Below, piece after piece: positions 20,169 through 64,000 of a DNA stretch of 64,000 nucleotides (positions are counted from its first letter, which is position 1; each line of letters starts with the position of its first letter). Source of the stretch: a virus. Under the pieces are notes generated by a model, which was given only the letters and a program-made list of their open reading frames with translations, was not told where the DNA came from and did not search any database. The position numbers and the translations under genes were made by a program. Where the stretch lies: IMG/VR virus record IMGVR_UViG_3300045999_007505. One strand, 5' to 3'.

Positions 20169-20191
20169 TATGCTCCTTTTTTATATAAATA

Positions 20192-20857
20192 TCAATACGT
20201 TTCATTTAGAAGTTTTAAAATTTCATTTAATGATTCATGACGATGATTATCCAATAAAATAATTTCATTAACATATTGTGATTTCGTTAATTTAGGTACT
20301 TCATGCACTGCCGAATCATTTGCAAACTTTAAATCTATTTGATATCTATCACCTGTGAGTATCATAATACTATCTTTACCTAATCTAGAAACAACCATTT
20401 GTAGTTGTTGTTTAGTTAAGTTTTGAAATTCGTCTACAATACAAACTGCATGATCGAATGTACGTCCTCGGAAGTGTGCTAATGAAACTAATTCAATATT
20501 TTCTTCCTTTTCCATTTTGTCTAATATTTCCGGTTTATTATAAACCTTACGCATATTGCTACGTAATGGAACTAACCATGGATCCATTTTTTCTGCTAAA
20601 GACCCAGGAAGAAATCCATTATCTTCGTTTGACACTGTAGGACGTGTTATGATAATTTTATTAATTTGTCGTTTAAAAAACATATCCAATGCAACTTGAA
20701 CTGCTAACAATGTTTTACCAGATCCGGCTTTGCCTAATATAAAATTAAATGGGGTTTCTATAATTTTTGCTTTTGCTTGTTTTTGCTCTTCTGATAATGT
20801 TATTGAAAATTTAATATCAGTTTTAGGTGGAGTTTTTTCCCGATTTTGAGTAGCCAT
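20192..20857 (-). CDS. phoH: PhoH-family ATPase
   Basis: GKAGSGKT, ITRP, GFLPG, RGRTF, DEFQN, SRLG, GDRYQID, NHRH. Confidence 0.95.
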   Translation of the reverse strand: MATQNREKTPPKTDIKFSITLSEEQKQAKAKIIETPFNFILGKAGSGKTLLAVQVALDMFFKRQINKIIITRPTVSNEDNGFLPGSLAEKMDPWLVPLRSNMRKVYNKPEILDKMEKEENIELVSLAHFRGRTFDHAVCIVDEFQNLTKQQLQMVVSRLGKDSIMILTGDRYQIDLKFANDSAVHEVPKLTKSQYVNEIILLDNHRHESLNEILKLLNETY

Positions 20858-21257: not shown

Positions 21258-22928
21258 TTAAAGTGTGTTAAGACCGTGAACGTATACTTTTCCGTAGAAT
21301 TCAGGACGAACTACTTTCTTCGCGTAACGTGTCATAACACCTTTACGTGGAGTGAAGTTTACTGGATCATATACAAGCGGAGTCATAATCAACGGAATAT
21401 ATGGACTAAATACAGCACCTGTTTCAAGGAACTGCGAACCACGGAATCCCATAAGGATTACATTCTCTAACATGTATGGGTTTTTGTATACTGTATAACG
21501 GTTATTGATGCTACCAATTTTTTGAACACCAGCAGCAAATTCCATTTTGTTACCATCTGTCTCGGCAGCAAATCCTGGGATAGACTCAAGGATAGTTGCA
21601 ACTGCAGGAGATGTTACTAAGAAGTTAGCACCGCCACGTAATGTTTTTTGGTGAATCTTATTAGATACTTTTTGAAGTTTAGTACCTAAAGTTTGGAACC
21701 AACCACCTTGGGTGTTGTAATATCCATCACCAACCGCAGTAGCTGCACCAGCACCAGATTGAGTAAATCCTGTACCGTTCCAGAAGTTGTTATTTAATGC
21801 TGACCAATACTCAGTTGTTGGAGCTGCTGAAATCAACATATCAAGGATTTCAAGATCGATTTCCATTGATACATACTCAGACAACATTGAAGTTAATTCA
21901 GCTTCAGCATCAATTGAGTGATAAGCATTTAAATCTTGAGCAAATTCAGGAGTCCAAACTGCTTTCAATTTACGTGTTTTAGCAACGATTGGCTCAGATT
22001 GCATTTCAAGGTTGATTTCTGGGATATCAATATCCGTACCATTATCGATACCTGTATTAGCAGAAGATCCTTTAAATGGATTTTTATCTTCAAAATCACC
22101 ACGCGTAATATCGGTAGGTTGCTTGCTATAGTTCAAGCTAAAGTTAGATGCACTAATTGCAGTTTGAATTGCAGTAGCTTGAGCGGTTGTTACAACAAAT
22201 GATGCAGTGTAATTGCTAGCAATTGTTGAAAATGCTTGAACTGGAACAATTTCAGTACCAGCTGAACCAGAAGCAAATGTCCATGAACGTACTGCATATA
22301 AATCAGCATCAGTTGGAACATTAACGGTAACTACTTTATAGCTAGCTAACGCAGTAGTAAAATTACCATCATAATTTACAGATCCAGAACCAGGAGCAGA
22401 ACCAGTTGCTGCATTAGCACTTGATGCTACCGTAGTATAAGGAATTGAATATCCAAAACGACCTGCACCATAAAGACCGCCAGCTGCATCACTACCAGTT
22501 GTAGTAACACCGAACATTGAGTCTAATGCGTTAGGATTTCCAAATGGATCTCCGGTACGGTTTGAATTATCATCATCAAATCCAGGTACAGATGTACCAT
22601 ATTTGAAGTCAAGATAGAAAATAAGACCTGATGGCAAATTCATTGGTTGAACTGAAACGAATTCTTTAGCTGCAAATTCAGCAAAAATACGACGTACCAA
22701 TGGAAGTGCTACACCTGCCCACTCTTCTGAACCAGCTTGTGTACCTGTTCCAGATGATTCTTTTACTAATTGACGTGCTTGGTTTTCAAGCAATTGTGCC
22801 ATTCCGGCTCTTTCGGTCTCACCACGAAGACCTTCTAATAAACCTGTTCTTTCCCACTTTGCAGATAAAGCTTTTGCATTGTTTCTTTGAACAAAGTCGT
22901 TTGTTTGAAGTAAGTTTGAAATACTCAT
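21258..22928 (-). CDS. gp23: Major capsid protein (T4 gp23-like)
   Basis: LPLVRR...VSVQPMNLPSGLIFYLDF; AKTRKLKAVWTPEFAQDLNAYHSIDAEAEL; PYIPL...FTPRKGVMTRYA. Confidence 0.97.
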   Translation of the reverse strand: MSISNLLQTNDFVQRNNAKALSAKWERTGLLEGLRGETERAGMAQLLENQARQLVKESSGTGTQAGSEEWAGVALPLVRRIFAEFAAKEFVSVQPMNLPSGLIFYLDFKYGTSVPGFDDDNSNRTGDPFGNPNALDSMFGVTTTGSDAAGGLYGAGRFGYSIPYTTVASSANAATGSAPGSGSVNYDGNFTTALASYKVVTVNVPTDADLYAVRSWTFASGSAGTEIVPVQAFSTIASNYTASFVVTTAQATAIQTAISASNFSLNYSKQPTDITRGDFEDKNPFKGSSANTGIDNGTDIDIPEINLEMQSEPIVAKTRKLKAVWTPEFAQDLNAYHSIDAEAELTSMLSEYVSMEIDLEILDMLISAAPTTEYWSALNNNFWNGTGFTQSGAGAATAVGDGYYNTQGGWFQTLGTKLQKVSNKIHQKTLRGGANFLVTSPAVATILESIPGFAAETDGNKMEFAAGVQKIGSINNRYTVYKNPYMLENVILMGFRGSQFLETGAVFSPYIPLIMTPLVYDPVNFTPRKGVMTRYAKKVVRPEFYGKVYVHGLNTL

Positions 22929-22959: not shown

Positions 22960-24090
22960 TTACAATAATCCTGCTAATTTTTTCCATCTGTTAGCTAATT
23001 CAAAGCCTTCAGATAAAACATTTTGCGTTTCCACACTTGGTGCGGTAGTTGTTATTGGTCGAGAAGCATAAGATTCTTTAACCACTCGTTTTTTGGTAGG
23101 ACGTTTGAAACTTTCAGCCAATGTAGCAAAAACTAATTTTGCTTCACGTGTATTTGCTGCCCTATCAAAATTTTCAATAACTTTCATTTTTTGCGGTTCT
23201 GATAACTCAAAATTACGGAACAATTTGTTTGTGTAAAGAAGTTTTGCATTAAGTAAATTTACTTCATTGATAACTGATTGAAGATGTTTAACTGTGCGAT
23301 ATGCTTCTTTAAGTGCGCCTTCTTTAGCTGTCAATTCATCTTCCATTGCTTCCAATACTTCATCTTTGTCTTCTTCAGACATAGTGTTTGGATTCAGTTT
23401 CTCATCTTCTTCTTCACGCAAAATTGCTTCAATAATTTCTTCTAATGCTGCATCAGACATTTCGTCGCCTTCGGTTGCCATTTCTTCTGAATCGCCCATC
23501 ATGTCATCTTCGGTCAATTTTCTTGAACCTTTGCCAATTTTGGAAGAAGTTAATTTTTTATACCCTTCCATTGTTGGCATTCCCATGTCATCATCTTCGT
23601 CTTCATCATAGCCTTCCATCGCCATTTCGTCTGATTCTAGATCGCCTTCTAACTCACGTAAGATTGATTCAATATTTAAATCATCTCCTTCGTTGTATTC
23701 AGCAGTCATTTCTTCATCAGATACTGGTTGTTCTTCAGCTGGCATTTCTTCTCCACCCATTTCATCACCTGCCATTCCTACTTGAAAAGAATAATCATTA
23801 CCACCAACTGATGCTGACAATGTATCATCTGTCCAAGTAAAATCATCATCGCCGGCTACTTCTGCACCTGCTTCAACACCCATTGCGTCTGTTTCTGGAC
23901 CAGCTACAGCACCTGCGTCTGTTGCTATTTCTTCTTCGCCATCAATTTCGTTTTGCAATTCTTTTGCTAACATTGCTTCTACTCTTGGACGAAATGCTTC
24001 CTGTAAAGCAATTTTTGCGTTTGCTAAAGCAGTTTCTTTAACAGCTTTTGCATCAGCGATTGCCTCTTTTAGCAAATCTGATTTTGCCAT
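22960..24090 (-). CDS. Prohead scaffold/core protein (gp22-like)
   Basis: Highly acidic, many (L/I)xE sites, C-terminal RWKKLAGL; directly upstream of the capsid gene. Confidence 0.8.
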   Translation of the reverse strand: MAKSDLLKEAIADAKAVKETALANAKIALQEAFRPRVEAMLAKELQNEIDGEEEIATDAGAVAGPETDAMGVEAGAEVAGDDDFTWTDDTLSASVGGNDYSFQVGMAGDEMGGEEMPAEEQPVSDEEMTAEYNEGDDLNIESILRELEGDLESDEMAMEGYDEDEDDDMGMPTMEGYKKLTSSKIGKGSRKLTEDDMMGDSEEMATEGDEMSDAALEEIIEAILREEEDEKLNPNTMSEEDKDEVLEAMEDELTAKEGALKEAYRTVKHLQSVINEVNLLNAKLLYTNKLFRNFELSEPQKMKVIENFDRAANTREAKLVFATLAESFKRPTKKRVVKESYASRPITTTAPSVETQNVLSEGFELANRWKKLAGLL

Positions 24091-25149: not shown

Positions 25150-25527
25150 TTATCCAACTTTAAAATAACGATTTAAACCTTGACCAATATTTTCATATGC
25201 CATGCTTAAACGTTCTTGCAAACGAGCCATTTCTTTTGCAGTGTCTTCAAACATTCTATAATCTTCTTCAAGTCGTTTAAAGTTTTTCTTGTGTGCAATT
25301 TCATTAAACCAATCAGCATCTTCCGTAACTATGCGTTGTGCTTTTTCTACAATGTCTCTTACTCGATCAGACAATTCATGTAAATCTGCCTTTCCGTATA
25401 CAGATTCTCCCATTGCTGTAAAATTTGCTACCGCTTCTGTAAATGCTTGTTTTTCTTCTTTTGATAACGGTTGTTGATGATCGCCATTAATGGTTTCAAT
25501 CAAATATTTAAGTGTGAATTGTTTCAT
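25150..25527 (-). CDS. Hypothetical helical head-region protein
   Basis: 125 aa, N-terminal LKYLIE, TAATG-coupled to the protease gene. Confidence 0.7.
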   Translation of the reverse strand: MKQFTLKYLIETINGDHQQPLSKEEKQAFTEAVANFTAMGESVYGKADLHELSDRVRDIVEKAQRIVTEDADWFNEIAHKKNFKRLEEDYRMFEDTAKEMARLQERLSMAYENIGQGLNRYFKVG

Positions 25528-26159
25528 TATATTATCCTACATTTACCATCTTCACATAAAATTGAAGTAATGATTTCGTTTGTTTTTACGTATTTATTTG
25601 TTGTTATATTTTTATTTATAGATTCATTCATGTGCGTAGGACGCATAAAAGCCCCATGGGTTGAAGGATTAGATACGAAGTCCCAACATATCAATTCAAA
25701 ATCTTCTTGAACTTCTACAGTGCCTTCATTTCGTAATTCTTTTACTGAACCCAATCCGCGCGATGATATTCCTAATGTAATTCCTGCTCTAAATAATTCT
25801 TTAAGAATTTTACCAGACGGAGTATCTAATATTTGTACTGCTCCGTGTAAATCATCGCCTTTCCACCAAATTTTTAAAACATTGTGTGAAACATTGTTTA
25901 AGTTTACAACCGAAGATTCTGGATGATCTAATTCTCCTAATGCTCTATGTTGATTAATATATTCAGCTTGATACCGTTGACATTCTCTTTCTAGAATATG
26001 TTTTGGATATACTCGACCATTTTGATTTTTAGAACCAGCTCGTTGCAAAACACCTTGTACAACAAATCCTCCTGGTATTCCGTATGATGCACCATTTGAT
26101 TCAGTTAATGAACCAACAGGCTTAAATGGAATATATTCTACTATTAGTTGTTTTGACAT
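25527..26159 (-). CDS. gp21: Prohead protease (T4 gp21-like)
   Basis: NQNGRVYP, ALGELDHP, VSH, TPSGKIL, GISSRGLGS, DFVSNPST. Confidence 0.95.
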   Translation of the reverse strand: MSKQLIVEYIPFKPVGSLTESNGASYGIPGGFVVQGVLQRAGSKNQNGRVYPKHILERECQRYQAEYINQHRALGELDHPESSVVNLNNVSHNVLKIWWKGDDLHGAVQILDTPSGKILKELFRAGITLGISSRGLGSVKELRNEGTVEVQEDFELICWDFVSNPSTHGAFMRPTHMNESINKNITTNKYVKTNEIITSILCEDGKCRII

Positions 26160-26160
26160 T

Positions 26161-26826
26161 TTATTCTCCTAATGCTCTCACGCGCTCTGATATTTTAATT
26201 AATCTTTCTGAAATTTTTAATAATGCTGATTCTACTGCAGAACCGTATCCGTTACGAGCAACTCCGGATTCTGTTTTTAAACGAGAGGCATAATTTACAG
26301 TGCGCTCAATTTCTTGTAATTGTCGTGCTACTTCTTTTATTGTATGTTTTATTTTTTGTTCAGGTGTTGACTTTGCATCTCCTGTTGAATATGCTCGATA
26401 TGATTCAATAAGTTGTTCATACTTAGTATCCATCATTTCGAAAACAGATGTTTTATTATTAGATGTGCGACTTGGTTTATTTGGCATATGTTTTGATGGG
26501 TATTCATATGATTTATTATGCCAATCTTTATCATCATCACTAAATGGAAATTTATCATTCATTACTTCTTCTTCTGATTCTGGATGTTGATATGTATCAT
26601 CTTTCCAACGAAACGAAGGCGGAGTATTTACAGATTCGTATGTTTTATCTTTATTTTTCCAATTTCCTGGTTTAGCAAATGCAGCGGGTATATTATATCC
26701 AGCTACACCGCCGGTTGCAGATATTTCATCTAATTCTTCTTCATTAGTGACATCTTGCGCATCCAAATCAATTGAATCATCTAATTCAATAAATTTTGAT
26801 TCAATTTCTTTTAAAAATGATTTCAT
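26161..26826 (-). CDS. Putative prohead core protein
   Basis: MKSFLKE N-terminus, LDEISATGGVAGYNIPAAF, coiled-coil C-terminus; between portal and protease. Confidence 0.55.
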   Translation of the reverse strand: MKSFLKEIESKFIELDDSIDLDAQDVTNEEELDEISATGGVAGYNIPAAFAKPGNWKNKDKTYESVNTPPSFRWKDDTYQHPESEEEVMNDKFPFSDDDKDWHNKSYEYPSKHMPNKPSRTSNNKTSVFEMMDTKYEQLIESYRAYSTGDAKSTPEQKIKHTIKEVARQLQEIERTVNYASRLKTESGVARNGYGSAVESALLKISERLIKISERVRALGE

Positions 26827-27720: not shown

Positions 27721-29562
27721 TTATAAAATATTAGTTTCATCCAACATAGTACCAGAATCTAAATTCTCATCAATTGATTTAGATTTCAATGATTCCGTTA
27801 ATATTTTGGATGATTTTGTTTTTAAATATTTTAAAATATCGTGATTTTCTGCTGCAATGTTGTTAGCAGTTTTTGTTTTTACAAATGCTGGATCTGGTTG
27901 AAATGCTGTTTTTTGATTTTCTGGACGAAATGCTTGATCTAATTCCTTTTTACCCGTAGGATCCCATCCAAAGGCATTTTTATGTTGTCCAAACTTGATT
28001 CCTTCTTTTGGTCGACCACCTTTATCTTTTTCTTCTACTTCATTGGATGACATATGAATTGATGCTAAATCGTGTGGCGTTCCAAACGATGCGCCCGTCA
28101 CTGCTGGATCATTTCCTTCTTGTTCAATTTGATTTTGACGGAATCGCAATTTAAGATCTTCAATAACATTGGTTCTTTCTTGCAACCATTGATCTTCTGA
28201 CATATTAAATATAAACTCATATATGTATTTATCTGAAACTAATTTAGAATCTTTCATTGCGGTTGCAAGTGTCATCTTTTCAGTCATTAACGCAACTTTT
28301 TGTTGATCATAAATAATTGATGGTGCTGTTAATTCTAATTCAAATCCAACTAAATCTTCACCTTCAAAACCTTGCGTATACAAATGTACAATTGCAATTT
28401 TATATAATTCTGATGTTACTATTTTTTGAATACGTTCAATCGTTCTAGCAAACCGAATATCCATCGATGCTAATGTAGTTTTACCTTCTACTGCTTCTGC
28501 ATATCCTAAAAATGGTTTAGGAATTTTAAGTGCAGCCATCATCTTATCTTTAATATAAGTAATATCATCCATTCCGGTAAAAGTCATACCAGGTAATGTA
28601 TCAATTGCAGTAGTTGAATTGCCTCCGCGAACTGGTAAATAATAATCTTCTAACATGTTATTAAGATTAAATTTTAAATTGTAATTTCCAGTTTGCGGAT
28701 CTACGTGTGGAATTTTTTTCATCTTATTGATAATTTGTTCCATAAATGCATCTACTTCATTTGGCGGAATATTACCAATATCAATTTTAAAAATACGTTT
28801 TTCTGGAGCTCTCATGATGCGATGAATTAACATTGCATCTTCCATCATCATAAGTTTTTGAAATTCTTTTCGTGCACCTTCTAACATGGATCTACCATAT
28901 GGTAAAAAATTAGAATCTGACAACATACGAAAATGTGCTATTTCATATACGTCATATGTTGCTTGTTGATTCGCAACATGTTTAAATGAAATTTTATATT
29001 GACCCGTTGCTTCATCATATTCTTCCCAACGTTCGATTTCGTAGCTAGAAAATGGTCTTGCATTGATAATTCCAATTTCATCAGCAATATCCAATTTTAA
29101 AAAGAAATCTCCATATTTTGTCATGTTACGAATCCAAGTCCATAGATTGAATTCAATATTCAAAATATCATAAAATAAATTATAAAGAATTTTTTGTATT
29201 TTGGTATTGTTTGTTTTAATAGTTAAAATATCTCCAAATTGATCTGCTAATGTAGATTCATCTGAATATATATCTAATGCCGAACTAATTATTGGATCGC
29301 GATCCATCATTTCATAATCAGCATAAAGCTGCATACGATTTTGATGCATATAATAGTTGGAATCATATCCGCCCATACCTCCTACACGATGTTTGTTTGC
29401 ACCGTGCAATCTAGTATATCTATCAGCTACCTTAGTTTGATTTAAATTACCAACAGATTGCAATCTATTAGTATCTACTATCTTAAGTTTATCTTTACCA
29501 TATGCACGAACAATCACGTTCGTAGCAAAAAGATTTTGTAATCGTTTTCTTAATGTTGGCAT
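27721..29562 (-). CDS. gp20: Portal protein (gp20-like)
   Basis: YGRSMLE.ARK...MEDAMLIHRIMRAPEKRIFKIDIGNIPP; EDYYLPVRGG; IDTLPG; ALKIPK; DIRFARTIERIQ. Confidence 0.95.
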   Translation of the reverse strand: MPTLRKRLQNLFATNVIVRAYGKDKLKIVDTNRLQSVGNLNQTKVADRYTRLHGANKHRVGGMGGYDSNYYMHQNRMQLYADYEMMDRDPIISSALDIYSDESTLADQFGDILTIKTNNTKIQKILYNLFYDILNIEFNLWTWIRNMTKYGDFFLKLDIADEIGIINARPFSSYEIERWEEYDEATGQYKISFKHVANQQATYDVYEIAHFRMLSDSNFLPYGRSMLEGARKEFQKLMMMEDAMLIHRIMRAPEKRIFKIDIGNIPPNEVDAFMEQIINKMKKIPHVDPQTGNYNLKFNLNNMLEDYYLPVRGGNSTTAIDTLPGMTFTGMDDITYIKDKMMAALKIPKPFLGYAEAVEGKTTLASMDIRFARTIERIQKIVTSELYKIAIVHLYTQGFEGEDLVGFELELTAPSIIYDQQKVALMTEKMTLATAMKDSKLVSDKYIYEFIFNMSEDQWLQERTNVIEDLKLRFRQNQIEQEGNDPAVTGASFGTPHDLASIHMSSNEVEEKDKGGRPKEGIKFGQHKNAFGWDPTGKKELDQAFRPENQKTAFQPDPAFVKTKTANNIAAENHDILKYLKTKSSKILTESLKSKSIDENLDSGTMLDETNIL

Positions 29563-29610
29563 ATTTTTAACTATTTTAATATAAATATAACTAGTTGTAG
29601 AACTGCGATG

Positions 29611-41200: not shown

Positions 41201-41380
41201 AATATCTCCAGTAACTACTGCAATGCTTCGTTCTGTTTTAGTTTGATTAATATATTCAAACATGTTTTTAAATACTTCTCGATATTCTCGATGCCGTTTC
41301 AATGTTCGAATATGTACGTCTGAAATATGATAAATTTTATCAATCTTATCAATTCCCGTTTCAATTTTTTTTATGCCCAT
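38234..41380 (-). CDS. SbcD/Mre11 nuclease-SbcC/Rad50 ATPase fusion (gp47-gp46-like)
   Basis: Phosphoesterase DVH, GD, GNHD, GDIH, YPGS; Walker A ANTSGKS; zinc hook CKYC; signature TSGME; Walker B IAIDEGWGSLD; ISH. Confidence 0.92.
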   Translation of the reverse strand: MGIKKIETGIDKIDKIYHISDVHIRTLKRHREYREVFKNMFEYINQTKTERSIAVVTGDIVHSKLDMSPELVQMLVDFFNGFELPTIVILGNHDMNLNNMHRIDAVSPVLDVIQNKHIHFVKDNGLFELGGVTWNHMAVDKTPADYIRAKDFTATYKIALHHGAVNTAKTDIGYQISNEHVGVDLFEGHDITLLGDIHKPAQFLDAAQTVAYPGSLIQQNHGEALDHGILVWDVEQRSAEFVQIENDYGYVTIETQGSAIISSPHRMPKRPRIRIKFNETSAADMKRLIAMIRKKYQVEDITIQRTIGSNATNTSSSLAIGNVRDVEYQNVLLTEYIDTNFPQATLNEIDAIRHINRTINSKLPAVESIRHTTWHPISFEFDNMFSYGEGNVLNFENLSDVCGLFAANTSGKSSLLDAITYTIFDKCSKTSKANEVLNNKKDWFRGVFRFEMNGVTYTIERRGTQNKKKETHVKVDVEFYTDSENLNGEERSETNKNIRRYLGTYDDFILTAFSLQADNNNFIEKSQKERKDLLSQFLDITVFEQLYQLAADEIKETAGRLKDYKKTDFAEIIIQADAVITENQDTIISLEQLEDQQQDLRNEFQEQILQLIETKLPTTYDGPNIAELQSQEQTLIGKIETIQTDIETAEQALETLSETVETLESELSQIDTAAIETQTTQYQKLEQLTNTCLQKFRQQQEKVNVKQEKIKHLESHEYDPNCKYCTSNVFVQNAIEAQNTIDSDRALLEEIQQELTELNSQLDALKPIFEIADQYNKLKSNIATKKITLERNELQLQILESDLQTRESELETVIERQESFRKNETAITHNQRIDQSIEECKTQIVSCSQQIKIIQDQIKSLFGAIEVARTNKGTAIDQLERYRQLETEYKAYEYYLESVKRNGIPYELVAKAIPKIESEINNVLNQIVEFNMVLNTDGKNINGYIIYDEDNYWPLELTSGMERFISSLAIRIALINVSALPRPNFIAIDEGWGSLDAEHISSVVNLFDYFRTKFDFSIIISHVDSMRDMVDNLIEVNKTNGFSKINHV

Positions 41381-42312
41381 AACATGTCCATTTTGAGTGC
41401 CATGATGCGCTCAAATGTTAATATATCAGTATCGTTAATAATTTCTGTAATATGTTCAAAACCTAATTCTGATGCATCTGCATCTTGTAGTTTGATAAAA
41501 TAAACATTTAATCCTTCTGCCATAAATCGTTCTGCAATTTGCACTGCATTTTTAAGTGCATCAGCATCCAAGCAAATATAGATATCTCTAACTCGTTTTT
41601 CAATGATTTTCTTTTGCAAAGCTGGTTGAATAATTTTTCCGAACAATGGTATTGCATTGCGTTTAATTGCAATTGCATCAAATGCCCCTTCGCAAAGTAT
41701 AATTGGTTGTGACCAATTTATAGTTAAATCAAATCCGATAATGTCTTTTGATATTTTTGGATTTTTATGTTTTTGTTTGTCTGCCTTATAAAATGCTCTA
41801 GAAACAAAATAATTCAATTGTCCTGCTTCATCATAGCTAGGAATAATTATCTTTCCGGAATATTCTCCTCGTTCGCAATATCCAATGCGATACTTTAAAA
41901 TATCTAACATACCAACACCGCGCTGAGCTAAATAATGAATTGCATTGCGATAATCTGGTGTACTTTTTTTATTCCATAACGGAATATAATTTTCTGGTAA
42001 TGATAATGCAGTTACGATTTTCGTTTCTGTATTAACACGATATCTAGAAGATTCAATTATTTTTGAAAGTTGTTCAAACCATTCTTTCGACAAGCCCATT
42101 TGCTTGAATAAACTAGAAATAGTTCGTCCTTTTTTATCAGATATCCAACAATGCCATGGATTTTCTCCGGCATGATTTGTGTTGATATCAATTTCTAATT
42201 TTGGTTTGTAATGTGAAGTAAATGGCGAAAAGAAAGCAATATTATTACCAGAAGTAGATTTTCCTTTACCTAGAACTGATTCTAATAATTGTAACAGTTT
42301 AAGATTCTTCAC
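41371..42312 (-). CDS. DNA primase (TOPRIM)
   Basis: WHCW, YL.QRG, IIIPSY, CEGAFDA, CLDADA, DASE; GTG start. Confidence 0.85.
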   Translation of the reverse strand: MKNLKLLQLLESVLGKGKSTSGNNIAFFSPFTSHYKPKLEIDINTNHAGENPWHCWISDKKGRTISSLFKQMGLSKEWFEQLSKIIESSRYRVNTETKIVTALSLPENYIPLWNKKSTPDYRNAIHYLAQRGVGMLDILKYRIGYCERGEYSGKIIIPSYDEAGQLNYFVSRAFYKADKQKHKNPKISKDIIGFDLTINWSQPIILCEGAFDAIAIKRNAIPLFGKIIQPALQKKIIEKRVRDIYICLDADALKNAVQIAERFMAEGLNVYFIKLQDADASELGFEHITEIINDTDILTFERIMALKMDMLWA

Positions 42313-42995: not shown

Positions 42996-43532
42996 TTACC
43001 AATCAACCATAACCATTTTATCATTCCATATCATGATATTATCCGATCGGAAATCTAAATCTAAATCAAATTCTTTTATATTTAATTTTTCAACATCTAA
43101 TTGTAATGCATTTAAAAAATTATCTATCAATGGATCTATAGTATCTGTTTCTTGAATAAAATCAAAAATAGAAACTTCTCCACCTCGTTCTCTAGCAAAC
43201 GAATAAAACTCATCCATAAACATATCAATTATTTTACGTATACGATCAGGCAATTCAGATGCATTTGCCATTATATACATATTTTTTCCATCAACATAAT
43301 ATACTGGAATAAACGTTGTAAATTCAGTATATCGGTTTACGATAATGTTTGCAACTTTATATTCATCTTGTTCTTGCGTAATTTTAAAAGTTTTATCTTC
43401 GCCATCAATTTCATAAACGCGACCATTATCGCCAGCACCAATTAATCGAAATTGTTTGTTTTGTATCTTATCTAAACAACGTTGAATATCAGATTCAGAT
43501 AATTCTTTAAGTAAATTTTTTAAACGTATCAT
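42996..43532 (-). CDS. Protein-kinase-like fold protein with MIRLKNLLKE leader
   Basis: Gly loop IGAGDNGRVY, FKIT..QDE, catalytic-loop-like DFRSDNIM, terminal VMVDW. Confidence 0.65.
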   Translation of the reverse strand: MIRLKNLLKELSESDIQRCLDKIQNKQFRLIGAGDNGRVYEIDGEDKTFKITQEQDEYKVANIIVNRYTEFTTFIPVYYVDGKNMYIMANASELPDRIRKIIDMFMDEFYSFARERGGEVSIFDFIQETDTIDPLIDNFLNALQLDVEKLNIKEFDLDLDFRSDNIMIWNDKMVMVDW

Positions 43533-53695: not shown

Positions 53696-53727
53696 TATGA
53701 TCCTTTTTACATATAAATATCAAAGGA

Positions 53728-61100: not shown

Positions 61101-62126
61101 TTATTCTAAAATTAATTGAGTATTTTTACAATATTCAAAATTTAAATTGGTCAATGCTAATTCTTTTGCTTTTGCCTCAACCATAACATCGAGATCAGCT
61201 ACACCATACGTGTCTGGAAGCCGTGTAATATAATCGGCATGAGCCTGCTCCTTGATCTTGGTAAACTCCTTGTATTGTTTGTGAAAGGTAGGCCAATTGG
61301 GCAAGTCGGCAATGTCAATACCATGATGTTCAAACATACGCTCAATAAGAATCTGTGCTTCGCGTCGACGGGACTCGCTGTAATGGGTACATTGAGTAAC
61401 ACCATGACGCTGCCAAGTCTCACGAGCCATAAAGAATGCTTCTTGTTCAGTCAAGTCGCCGGTATTGAAAGTGTGATGCCAATAATCAAATGTAATCGGT
61501 ATAGCAATCTCGGCATGTAACATTTCATACAACTCGCGCACCGAATACATAGATGCCTTATCATCATTCTCAATAACTAAACGTGACTTGCAAGAATCTG
61601 ATAAACGATCATAGTTATGCAACCACCGTGCAATAGTACCAGGCTTATCATTATAAGTAGCACCAACGTGAATATTGATCTTGTTCTCAAAGCTAGGTGC
61701 AAAGCCCATCATATCAAAGAGCTCGGAATGTCGTTCGAGACCAATAATAGAATTATCAACAACTACAGCATCGGGACTACCAAGAATATGAAATGGACCA
61801 GGATGCGTTGTAATGCGGTGGCCATGTGCACGTGCATAATCACCTGCGGCACGAAGATGTTGAGCAATAAGATCGATGTCGGGCAAATCTTCAAGACGAT
61901 AATGATTCCAACGCGGAAACAACTCGGAGCCTAAACGAAACAATCGTATACCATGGGCTTCATTCCATTGCAGAATAGTTAATAAATCACGGGCATTGGC
62001 AAGTGCAATATCAGATGCAAGCCGTAAGCCACCTAGTTTAAATTTGCGATCAATCATGGCACGTCCGGTACGAATACCTTGGGCGGATAACTCCATGTTG
62101 ATACAAGCATAACCGAAACGAATCAT
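61101..62126 (-). CDS. uvsE: UV damage endonuclease UvsE/UVDE
   Basis: RFGYACIN, IRLFRLGS, RITTHPG, INIHVG, RLVIENDD, FDYWHH, HYSES, AHAD, MVEAKAKE. Confidence 0.95.
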   Translation of the reverse strand: MIRFGYACINMELSAQGIRTGRAMIDRKFKLGGLRLASDIALANARDLLTILQWNEAHGIRLFRLGSELFPRWNHYRLEDLPDIDLIAQHLRAAGDYARAHGHRITTHPGPFHILGSPDAVVVDNSIIGLERHSELFDMMGFAPSFENKINIHVGATYNDKPGTIARWLHNYDRLSDSCKSRLVIENDDKASMYSVRELYEMLHAEIAIPITFDYWHHTFNTGDLTEQEAFFMARETWQRHGVTQCTHYSESRRREAQILIERMFEHHGIDIADLPNWPTFHKQYKEFTKIKEQAHADYITRLPDTYGVADLDVMVEAKAKELALTNLNFEYCKNTQLILE

Positions 62127-62169: not shown

Positions 62170-62211
62170 ATAACATTATTTTTTTTGCGCGATATTTATT
62201 ATCGTAACATT

Positions 62212-62397
62212 GAACATATTTATTATAAATCATAAAGGAACATAACCAAAATGAAAAATTTACTTTCAGAAAACATGCTACGGTTTGGAACCAAAAATTT
62301 ATCTGAATCAGCACAAAGAGAATTAACTCTTAAATCAATCATGGAAACCATTAATGAACATGGTTTACATAATGAAGTTAGACGACATTTAATGGAA
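62212..62397 (+). repeat. Copy A of the promoter + RBS + 49-codon leader module
   Basis: gaacatatttatta...ataaagga...atgaaaaatttactttcagaaaacatg; repeated at 63251-63435. Confidence 0.9.
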
Positions 62398-62823
62398 CAA
62401 GGAAAACCTGATCCTAATTATTTAGGTTATGCAAAGAAAATTGCAGGTCAGCTAATGACTGCATTAGGTGGTGCTGATGATGAGGATGGCGTTTTAGCTG
62501 CATTAAAATCAATAAAAACATATGGTGGTCAACCAGTTTATGATAATTTATTACAACTAGTTAAAACATCTCCAAAAATTAAATCTCAATTTGGAAAAAA
62601 TTTTAAATTAGTTTCTTCTATGATTGCTGATGGTGGTATATCGCAAATGGATTTGGGATATGATGATGCAACTTCTTCTCCGGTAAAAAATCCTTTGCAA
62701 GGAAAAGGATTAGGTATTGATCGGGATTATATTATCAAATTTAAGGAAATATTACAACAGTATAATCCAAATGAAGATGACTTTACTAGAGGAATGTTTC
62801 CAAGTAATTTACAAGGAAAATAG
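62251..62823 (+). CDS. Leader-cassette protein A; payload has an annexin-repeat-like segment
   Basis: Shared 49-aa leader, then YAKKIAGQLMTALGGADDEDGVLAALKSI (cf. annexin A..L..Am.G.GTDE..i..il). Confidence 0.7.
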   Translation: MKNLLSENMLRFGTKNLSESAQRELTLKSIMETINEHGLHNEVRRHLMEQGKPDPNYLGYAKKIAGQLMTALGGADDEDGVLAALKSIKTYGGQPVYDNLLQLVKTSPKIKSQFGKNFKLVSSMIADGGISQMDLGYDDATSSPVKNPLQGKGLGIDRDYIIKFKEILQQYNPNEDDFTRGMFPSNLQGK

Positions 62824-62855
62824 TAAATTTACTAACATACAAAAACTTAAACAAC

Positions 62856-62888
62856 AAATGGGATAGACATCTATCCCATTTTTTTTTT
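62856..62888 (+). terminator. Intrinsic terminator between convergent genes
   Basis: AAATGGGATAG-ACAT-CTATCCCATTT plus a T run. Confidence 0.9.
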
Positions 62889-62892
62889 GTTC

Positions 62893-63144
62893 TTATTTTA
62901 AAGAAATATTTTTTACTTTTAAAATTTTTACCAATAATACATTAATAAAAACTAAACTAACGATAGTACTAAATAAATAAAAATTTGAAATACCATAAGA
63001 TGGAAATAAATTTGTGATATCAAATCCATTAAAAAATTGTAATTCAAATAAATTAAGATTTGATGGATTAAACAACCCAATTGTAGTTAATATTAATACG
63101 ATATTAAGAATCGCTACCCCTGAAATAAACACTGATTTTTTCAT
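62893..63144 (-). CDS. Small two-TM membrane protein
   Basis: Two hydrophobic segments and a basic C-terminus; TTGGAT-N17-TATTAT promoter upstream. Confidence 0.55.
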   Translation of the reverse strand: MKKSVFISGVAILNIVLILTTIGLFNPSNLNLFELQFFNGFDITNLFPSYGISNFYLFSTIVSLVFINVLLVKILKVKNISLK

Positions 63145-63177
63145 AACTTAAATCTTTAACTGGTTAATTATATTATA

Positions 63178-63206
63178 ATAATATGAAAACTTTTGTATGA
63201 ATCCAA
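63178..63206 (-). promoter_or_regulatory. Sigma70-like promoter TTGGAT-N17-TATTAT
   Basis: 17-nt spacer; back-to-back with the ATATTTAT motif of cassette B. Confidence 0.55.
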
Positions 63207-63250
63207 ATATATTATTTTTTTTCTTGAATCATATTTATTATTGTTAATAA

Positions 63251-63435
63251 GAACATATTTATTAAAAACCATAAAGGAATACAAACAAATGAAAAATTTA
63301 CTTTCAGAAAACATGTTGCGATTCGGAACCAAAAATTTATCTGAATTAGCACAACGAGAATTAATTCTTAAATCAGTAATGCAAACTATTAATGAGCATG
63401 GATTGCATGAAGATGTTACTCAACGATTAAATGAA
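63251..63435 (+). repeat. Copy B of the promoter + RBS + 49-codon leader module
   Basis: 36 of the first 40 aa identical to copy A. Confidence 0.9.
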
Positions 63436-63948
63436 ACGATGTTGACAGAAGGCGTGCCAAATACAATATTAACAGGTCCTGCATCTATTACTATCCCTTC
63501 GAGAACGGTATGTATCAGCGGTAAAGATTATATTCAAGTAAGTTTTATAGTTGAAAACACTGGCGATGCAGACGCATATTTAACTCAGTTCCCATTTCTA
63601 TCCACACCGGCATCTGCAGATAAGATAGGATACGGAGTATTCACTTCAAATAATTACAATGTTACTATTGGTGGTAAACCATCGTGGGGCCAAGCTGACC
63701 AACAAAATGCACCTAAAATCCCTAAAGGAAAAAAAGCAACAATTAACATGACAATCTATACAGATTTGGCTCGGCCGGGAGATCAAGGTGCAGCTTTTCG
63801 TAAAAATCTTAAAGAATTAACATCTGCAACAATTGTAGTAAGATATAATGGAGCTACAGGTTTGAAAATTCCTGTAACATTTGGTGGGCTTACTTGGAGT
63901 AATTCTAATGCATGCGATATAGAAATTGCATTACCAAAAGGTTTCTAA
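63289..63948 (+). CDS. Leader-cassette protein B; Ig-like (DUF1573/CARDB-like) payload
   Basis: True start is ATG 63289 (paralogy, AAGGA RBS); payload VSFIVENTGDADAYL...IPKGKKATINMTI. Confidence 0.7.
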   Translation: MKNLLSENMLRFGTKNLSELAQRELILKSVMQTINEHGLHEDVTQRLNETMLTEGVPNTILTGPASITIPSRTVCISGKDYIQVSFIVENTGDADAYLTQFPFLSTPASADKIGYGVFTSNNYNVTIGGKPSWGQADQQNAPKIPKGKKATINMTIYTDLARPGDQGAAFRKNLKELTSATIVVRYNGATGLKIPVTFGGLTWSNSNACDIEIALPKGF

Positions 63949-63972: not shown

Positions 63973-64000
63973 AAAAAAAAGCCCCATCCTAAGATGGGGT
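63973..64000 (+). terminator. Probable terminator after cassette B (cut by the window end)
   Basis: A-run-GCCCCATC-CTAA-GATGGGGT. Confidence 0.7.

Follow-up and report, generated by a model that had tools for sequence, protein, structure and literature searches.

In bacteriophage T4 the internal proteins bear an N-terminal capsid-targeting sequence (CTS), which is removed by the prohead protease gp21 cutting after an (I/L)xE triad; in the internal protein IPIII the CTS comprises residues 1-10, and processing requires its residues 8 and 10 (PMC9026906, PMC3012670). The T4 internal proteins are, furthermore, basic (PMC9026906). Here we describe a family of N-terminal leader peptides that was noticed in two genes, WA and WB, near one end of a 64,000-nucleotide stretch of viral DNA (IMG/VR record IMGVR_UViG_3300045999_007505; the whole stretch is hereafter termed the window). 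On balance, this leader is probably a capsid-targeting propeptide comparable to that of the T4 internal proteins, which would be cut by the head protease of the phage: the reading draws on the analogy with T4 and on the features of the leader and of its payloads detailed below.

WA (62251..62823, plus strand, 190 amino acids) and WB (63289..63948, plus strand, 219 amino acids; the correct start codon is the ATG at 63289 and not the TTG at 63193 farther upstream) have in common their leading 49 residues, which align without a gap and are identical at 36 of the first 40 positions. The likeness stops after LME49 in WA and after LNE49 in WB, and past the leader an alignment of the two is meaningless. 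The open reading frames (ORFs) and the alignment thereby bear out the initial annotation, which had recognized two plus-strand units with a near-identical 49-residue leader, each preceded by the motif ATATTTAT and a ribosome-binding site: a motif scan places two copies of ATATTTAT before WA (62192-62199, 62216-62223) and two before WB (63231-63238, 63255-63262), all on the plus strand, and the ribosome-binding site AAAGGAA, read from the sequence and conserved between the units, lies on the same strand at 62234..62240 and 63273..63279. Around 120 nt 5' of the leader are likewise conserved between the two units. Four LxE/IxE sites had been counted in each leader; this figure has to be corrected to five (L/I)xE triads, which in leader A occupy residues 5-7, 17-19, 30-32, 34-36 and 47-49. 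Leader A (62251..62397, plus strand, 49 codons) consists of a core, MKNLLSENMLRFGTKNLSE, and a helical extension, and leader B (63289..63450, plus strand, 54 codons) of the common 49 residues and an additional TMLTE, with the conserved payload of WB beginning at G55, directly after LTE54. Both leaders are modeled by AlphaFold2 (AF2) as low-confidence helices; they are polar and correspond to neither a Sec nor a lipoprotein signal.

The 49-residue leader of the window is the long form of a much larger family. A search with leader residues 1-50 recovered 241 clusters of proteins, 104-333 amino acids in length, which carry this long form, and a short form of 26-33 residues runs from the core MKN(I/L)L(A/S)ENMLRFGxKNLxE through a few further residues to an LxE triad. 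A profile of the core (32 columns), run against 1.84 billion representatives at 50% identity (E <=1e-3), matches 1184 representative clusters, and most of the 150 matches listed begin within residues 1-4. Alignments drawn from more than 1000 diverged clusters show N8, R11, F12, G13, K15 and N16 of the leader to be invariant or near-invariant. In IMG/VR, 40 loci carry one to six leader genes each, in tandem and on the same strand, and the payloads of 323 leader proteins fall into about 104 BLAST groups. With these numbers of clusters, loci and payload groups the leader is a widespread portable module, as the initial annotation had surmised from two copies, and the 1184 clusters and 40 loci led us to reject a one-off duplication. 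A cellular origin was rejected on the strength of a scan of 185,579 prokaryote species genomes, which found the leader on a single 3.7-kb contig (L042; CAZKLA010000117.1) from a metagenome-assembled genome labelled Aquiluna; this is probably a mis-binned phage contig. The leader motif was not found in the literature searched.

About 36 related loci possess a syntenic backbone of several genes, an HD-domain gene, two small genes and the gene for the UV-damage endonuclease UvdE (72-99% amino acid identity), and the leader array usually starts immediately past UvdE where a locus extends to this gene; in the window, too, UvdE (61101-62126, minus strand) adjoins the cassette array. The cassette content varies even at 99% UvdE identity, as seen in the loci L001 and L027 when set against the window. 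We determined by blastn where homology between the window and ten relatives ends. In four of them it runs through UvdE, promoter and leader and stops at 62399, 62399, 62400 and 62417, at or just past the last leader position (62397); in three, which have short leaders, it stops at 62307-62327, in one at 62370, and in the remaining two before the promoter. The synteny and the exchange breakpoints are direct observations, and the latter agree with the recombination within common promoter and leader DNA that had been postulated from the window alone.

The converse arrangement, in which one payload is found behind different leaders, is also observed. The WB payload (starting GVPNT) stands in addition behind two other leaders, MKKIVRLTESDL... 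and MKFIISEQEKQRILEMHQ..., and with all three unrelated leader families it is joined, without exception, at L(M/T)E|GVPNT; for the WA payload, only the window-type leader was found in front. In the viral collection most matches to the two other leaders are confined to the leader part, a pattern suggestive of many different payloads. These two families, with the patterns MKKIVRLTESDLxRIVRRVxNE..LL(T/M)E and MKFIISEQEKQRILEMHQNATSRQYL(M/T)E (P0268-P0299; L044-L147), are widespread on viral contigs of 30-290 kb; each has an (L/I)xE triad near its start and terminates in L(M/T)E.

The boundary itself is marked by a peptide motif. The leader ends in an (L/I/V/M)xE triad in 319 of 328 proteins (97%), versus 9% of equal-sized windows in the payloads. 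The Glu of this triad lies exactly 10 residues past KNL in 100 of the 153 short leaders with a site and exactly 32 residues past it in 124 of 166 long leaders, and conservation of the two LxE triads of the core (5-7 and 17-19) is 90% or higher. A candidate enzyme for such sites is encoded in the window: the ORF at 25527..26159 (minus strand; N-terminus MSKQLIVE), previously taken for the protease from its sequence, is indeed a prohead protease of the T4 gp21 type (Peptidase_S77; Pfam PF03420, 1.1e-32; PHROG 207, 2.9e-54). An S77 gene is present in all five further records with the window-type leader and in 16 of 17 leader-bearing virus records overall, the two other leader families supplying 11 of 12 large records. 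The maturation site of the T4 capsid protein gp23, LTE65|A, aligns with LVKE57|S of the window capsid protein and with IVSE|A of Flavobacterium phage immuto, and by this alignment an aliphatic-x-Glu cleavage rule is plausible for the S77 protease of the window. When the leader is compared by eye with the T4 CTS, as read from the N-termini of ipII and ipIII (MKTYQEFIAE), the shared features are limited to the opening MK and an (L/I)xE triad soon after it, the 10-residue tag being too short for scoring. In T4, Asp at the cleavage position stops processing yet leaves targeting intact.

Several head-core and other proteins of the window also start with a short tag that ends in (L/I)xE: the scaffold (22960-24090, minus strand) opens MAKSDLLKE, a 125-residue protein (25150-25527, minus strand) MKQFTLKYLIE, the protease MSKQLIVE, a 221-residue protein (26161-26826, minus strand) MKSFLKE, a kinase-like protein (42996-43532, minus strand) MIRLKNLLKE and its neighbour (41371-42312, minus strand) (V)KNLKLLQLLE. 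The leader opening (MKNLLSE; MIRLKNILAE in relatives) resembles these tags, and since leader variants open MI(R/K)LKNILAE-NMLRFG, the leader appears to begin with a tag of the MIRLKNLLKE type. We treat the resemblance as a lead only, because an (L/I)xE within the first 16 residues is found in 10 of 57 window genes, an overall count that does not stand out above a rough chance estimate of about 8.

The leader genes have a promoter-like motif in common with the structural genes. ATATTTAT occurs 35 times in the window against 21.5 expected, a count reached in none of 100 shuffles, and 29 of the 35 copies lie on the minus strand, which is the strand of most genes. It sits on the coding strand 21-35 nt 5' of many structural gene starts, that of the portal gene included, and a late-like motif precedes 55 of 72 leader genes in the related loci. 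Judged from this distribution, ATATTTAT behaves like a late promoter of this phage, and both WA and WB carry it. A late-promoter-like form, ATATTTATA(T/A)AAA, is seen at the same distance of 21-35 nt before many structural starts (for example 29581-29588, 20185-20192 and 53713-53720, minus strand). Its core, TATTTATA, is the reverse complement of the T4 late box, TATAAATA.

The leader gene is typically one half of a two-gene unit. The initial annotation had regarded the units as stand-alone, which does not hold for unit A: a convergent gene (62893..63144, minus strand), coding for an 83-residue protein with hydrophobic membrane-type segments, is the partner of cassette A, and small hydrophobic homologues of its product come after WA-type payloads in loci L013 and L005. 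Among 64 evaluable cassettes, 45 have such a convergent minus-strand gene right behind the payload. The claim that each unit possesses its own terminator stands for WA, in the form of a hairpin at 62856..62890 that is common to the convergent pair and has a T-run on the plus strand only (62856-62881, 3' of WA); for WB, the hairpin 3' of the gene (63982..63999) is cut by the window end and scored as a terminator on the minus strand only, for a gene that would enter from outside the window. A Sec signal peptide ending in (A/S/G/T)-Q is present in 36 of 45 distinct partners (e.g. L002:8087-8500, L004:10618-11031, L028:9254-9871), and the other nine, that of the window among them, are mostly hydrophobic proteins of membrane type. 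A Q-rule is described for Bacteroidetes signal peptides (PMC5837995), and because the partner signal peptides follow it, the sequences point to a host in the Bacteroidota.

Payload and partner can be compared in charge and in family. The mature partners are acidic (median isoelectric point, pI, 5.5) and the payloads basic, with 24 of 45 pairs combining a basic and an acidic member. Further, 21 of 24 pairs of cassettes with the same payload also share a partner cluster (permutation mean 1.3, maximum 7 in 5000), and the co-varying payload-partner pairs sit at different array positions. We observe this co-variation directly; it could arise from physical linkage alone. A promoter-like block (TTGGA, about 17 nt, CATATTATTaTAATATAATTAACCA; 63161..63212, minus strand), unique in the window (63161-63185), lies upstream of the partner gene, and in those loci that yielded counterparts, these likewise stand at the upstream end of the partner gene. 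The Bacteroidota host-type promoter TAnnTTTG was considered and rejected for the partner genes, as it precedes only 4 of 45 and a different conserved block, the one just described, is present instead. A block of about 60 bp (63127-63188), which takes in the start of the partner gene together with some of the sequence upstream of it, recurs with 83-94% identity at cassette borders elsewhere, and could act as the right-hand homology arm for cassette exchange. Three things go beyond what the initial annotation had seen: that cassettes usually comprise two genes, the second for an exported or membrane partner; that the 49-residue leader is the long form of one of 26-33 residues; and that other leader families occur on the same payload.

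The payloads of the window are unrelated to each other, as had been predicted from their sequences: the AF2 models give one helical and one β fold, there is no alignment past the leader, and homologous payloads are thereby rejected. Payload A (62398..62823 with the stop codon, plus strand; 140 residues, pI 8.0) is predicted to be a helical domain followed by a low-confidence tail; the predicted local distance difference test (pLDDT) score is about 80-93 for most positions between residues 51 and 130. Neither Pfam nor PHROG yielded a match for it, and Foldseek gave nothing significant (E >1). In VIA-align its best matches are annexins and giardins, over a single repeat (Z 6.4-8.6, root-mean-square deviation 2.2-2.6, 72-75 residues), such Z values being common by chance for helical models. 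The model is hence weakly like a single annexin repeat, a likeness that had been proposed earlier and that Pfam does not pick up from the sequence. Relatives of payload A carry a GxGTDE motif. Payload B (63451..63948 with the stop codon, plus strand; about 165 residues, pI 8.9) is predicted to adopt a β-sandwich of the Ig/PapD type with two conserved cysteines (pLDDT about 85-92 in most strands), in keeping with the Ig-like assignment made before. Foldseek returned 45 matches at E <=1e-3, the best of them Ig-like/PapD-like (8.7e-6) and all β-sandwiches, with TM-scores of just 0.3-0.5; the model accordingly supports an Ig-like or PapD-like β-sandwich as a fold class, with no claim to a family.

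Across the family known domains are almost absent from the payloads: Pfam matched 0 of 69 and 3 of 125 and none of the ten longest, and PHROGs matched 0 of 69. The rare Pfam matches are Lcl_C, Fib_succ_major and LysM, and no toxin domain was recognized in any payload by the Pfam and PHROG scans. Profile searches of PDB with three large payload families gave no match, and searches of the ESM Atlas nothing usable. Most payloads have just 120-250 residues, and a single phage has up to six different cassettes. They have a median pI of 8.9, with 69 of 104 above 8, versus a median of 5.7, with 13 of 53 above 8, for the other, backbone proteins of the phage. Some large payloads (450-626 residues; L027:5561-7180, L040:5239-7056, L028:11348-13186) contain, for instance, NGNEFLAQQRGESAKKYLESKGV, which by eye is like the peptidoglycan-binding motif of OmpA/MotB; sequence searches of Pfam and PDB gave no confirmation.

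The window as a whole is the structural region of a far-T4 myophage. Besides the protease and the scaffold, it encodes the capsid protein (gp23; 21258-22928), a gp20-type portal (27721-29562), the large terminase and PhoH. The closest isolate is the above-mentioned immuto (57% identity in the capsid protein), and the DNA of the cassette region found no match among cultured phages. The carriers of the leader are uncultured, abundant aquatic far-T4 phages, probably of Bacteroidota.

Taken together, these observations suggest the following course of events. The leader-payload genes would be transcribed alongside the structural genes from promoters of the ATATTTAT type. The leader would dock the protein onto the assembling head core, and the S77 protease (25527-26159) would cut after the (L/I)xE triads, that of the junction included, leaving a mostly basic mature payload inside the head, which would exit with the DNA upon infection. 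We infer packaging, cleavage and delivery by analogy with T4. Promoter and leader on one flank and the partner promoter block on the other may provide the homology by which payload and partner are swapped together as cassettes; the conserved N-terminal coding region of the partner, as seen by eye, may extend it. Speculatively, the exported or membrane partner, under its distinct promoter type, may neutralise the matching payload of superinfecting phages. Each cassette would then comprise a late-made effector, which the leader brings into the head and which is set free in the cell or envelope of the host infected next, and an exported or membrane protein from another promoter class that neutralises the same effector of later attackers, the whole forming a polymorphic effector/immunity array between competing phages; we offer this extended version as a possibility and hold it to be rather doubtful. 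Regarding the leader as a portable targeting tag, as the initial annotation did, has gained from the portability, the junction motif, the S77 gene, the unrelated payloads and the breakpoints; the part of it that concerns loading and cutting keeps its conditional form.

A number of points weigh against a capsid-targeting propeptide. The leader lacks detectable sequence similarity to the T4 CTS, is 3-5 times longer and is known here from sequence alone. The cleavage specificity of the protease in this clade is extrapolated from T4 and a single aligned capsid site, and the weight of the 16 of 17 records with both leader and S77 depends on how common S77 is in large aquatic phage contigs. Within the payloads, (L/I)xE triads are depleted only slightly (90 observed, 103.5 expected). 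The nearest isolate, immuto, is without the leader, and tblastn with its long and short forms found no match in 50,697 cultured phage records. Lastly, the Ig-like fold of WB, the rare Lcl_C, Fib_succ_major and LysM matches and the exported partners would suit the cell surface or periplasm better than internal proteins bound to DNA.

The last of these points is met by the main rival, unlikely in our estimation, in which the leader stays uncut and serves as an adaptor by which variable binding modules (adhesins, decoration or fibre accessory proteins) are attached to a conserved site on the virion exterior, and the partner masks or alters the matching host receptor, for which T5 pb5/Llp is a precedent (PMC9586334). 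The Ig/PapD-like β-sandwich of WB and the few payload Pfam matches, which are of binding type, would both fit such modules, as would partners that are exported and whose family tracks the payload family; a late promoter, for its part, suits any virion protein. An adaptor leaves unexplained, however, why (L/I)xE stands at the end of homology in 97% of proteins, why three conserved LxE triads are set within 26 residues and why L(M/T)E|G recurs after three different leaders. Also difficult to accommodate are the unusual basicity of the payloads relative to other virion proteins, the up to six cassettes per phage, the more than 100 payload groups with most members in the range of 120-250 residues and the want of any fibre or decoration PHROG among 69 proteins.

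It may instead be asked whether the virion is involved at all. The leader could be a pro-domain or sorting tag that keeps effectors inactive or, in the infected cell, guides them to some machinery of phage or host, and that is removed at Glu by some protease, with the cassettes being of an effector/immunity-like type and having no part in head assembly. A constant N-terminus, a variable C-terminus and a co-varying small neighbour do resemble polymorphic toxin loci, and payload and partner have opposite charges in 24 of 45 pairs. We nonetheless judge a non-virion role to be quite improbable: 16 of 17 leader-bearing records also encode the S77 head protease, the leader genes carry the late-type motif of the structural genes, the leader is polar and helical in contrast to Sec or lipoprotein signals, and the head-core proteins beside the protease open with short ...L(L/I)xE tags as well. 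Moreover, the producing cell makes payload and partner in separate compartments. The idea that the shared segment is conserved as nucleic acid (a promoter, 5' mRNA, translation enhancer or recombination site), with the peptide having no role, could appeal to the roughly 120 nt conserved upstream along with the leader and to homology blocks that stop at cassette borders. We give it hardly any credence. Comparison of the first 40 codons of WA and WB finds 28 identical, 8 with synonymous and 4 with non-synonymous changes, and this excess of synonymous differences speaks for selection at the level of the peptide, as do the six (near-)invariant residues across more than 1000 diverged clusters and a conserved junction that is itself a peptide motif.

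Should the leader act as a capsid-targeting propeptide, its implications would reach beyond this phage. Proteins carried in the head and injected are the first strike against host defences, and, T4 and a small number of giant phages apart, sequence hardly allows them to be recognised. The leader offers a sequence handle for over 1000 candidate packaged proteins, in more than 100 families without known function, along with predicted exact mature N-termini, and the breakpoints at its end show a way in which arsenals of this kind could pass between phages. Exclusion of one phage by another may be indicated by the co-varying exported partners, and the two further leader families suggest a general principle among phages with gp21-type proteases. 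If it does load cargo, the leader might also be a possible packaging tag for phages of Bacteroidota.

Of the described systems, the T4 internal proteins and their CTS (IPI, IPII, IPIII, Alt) are the most similar: in both cases a short N-terminal propeptide, here a putative one, is placed on otherwise unrelated, mostly basic proteins and ends in (L/I)xE, the site cut by gp21 in T4 and potentially by the S77 protease encoded here. In the internal protein loci of the T-even phages, too, gene content varies behind a constant leader (PMC3012670, PMC9026906). In T4, ipII and ipIII lie beside the UV-repair gene denV (NC_000866 64939-66415, L148), and here the array lies beside the unrelated UvdE, a similarity that may be a coincidence. 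The window-type leader differs from the T4 CTS in its length (26-54 residues versus 10), its dissimilarity to MKTYQEFIAE, its far more strictly conserved core (1184 clusters) and its three to five (L/I)xE triads; in addition, the cassettes described here usually have a convergent exported or membrane partner with its own promoter, and are known from their genes alone. In the giant phages phiKZ, 201phi2-1 and SPN3US a relative of gp21 cleaves numerous head proteins behind a Glu, and the propeptides, among them those of inner-body and ejection proteins, have several redundant sites, with few determinants beyond the Glu before the cut (PMC9026906). These differ from the present system in that no single portable leader is spread over more than 100 unrelated payloads, and no cassette array or partner gene is described for them in the literature examined.

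With regard to the partner, T4 gp5/Spackle and T5 pb5/Llp are comparable in that a virion protein has an exported phage product as its counterpart, which in cells already infected blocks either that protein or its receptor (PMC7677548, PMC9586334). In the cassettes, by contrast, the pairing rests on adjacency and co-variation, and there are many alternative pairs per locus; a functional pairing of payload and partner like that of gp5/Spackle or pb5/Llp is our hypothesis. Polymorphic toxin loci (CDI, Rhs) combine a constant N-terminal delivery part with a variable C-terminus that begins at a sharp motif and with a co-varying small neighbour, and are exchanged by recombination; the system reported here differs from them in its phage-head context, its convergent exported partner and the lack of a recognized toxin domain. 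In kind it would thus be an instance of the T4 CTS and internal-protein principle, and what is new lies in the leader itself and the scale of its use, in the host group, in the exact breakpoints, in the existence of parallel leader families and in a cassette of two genes.

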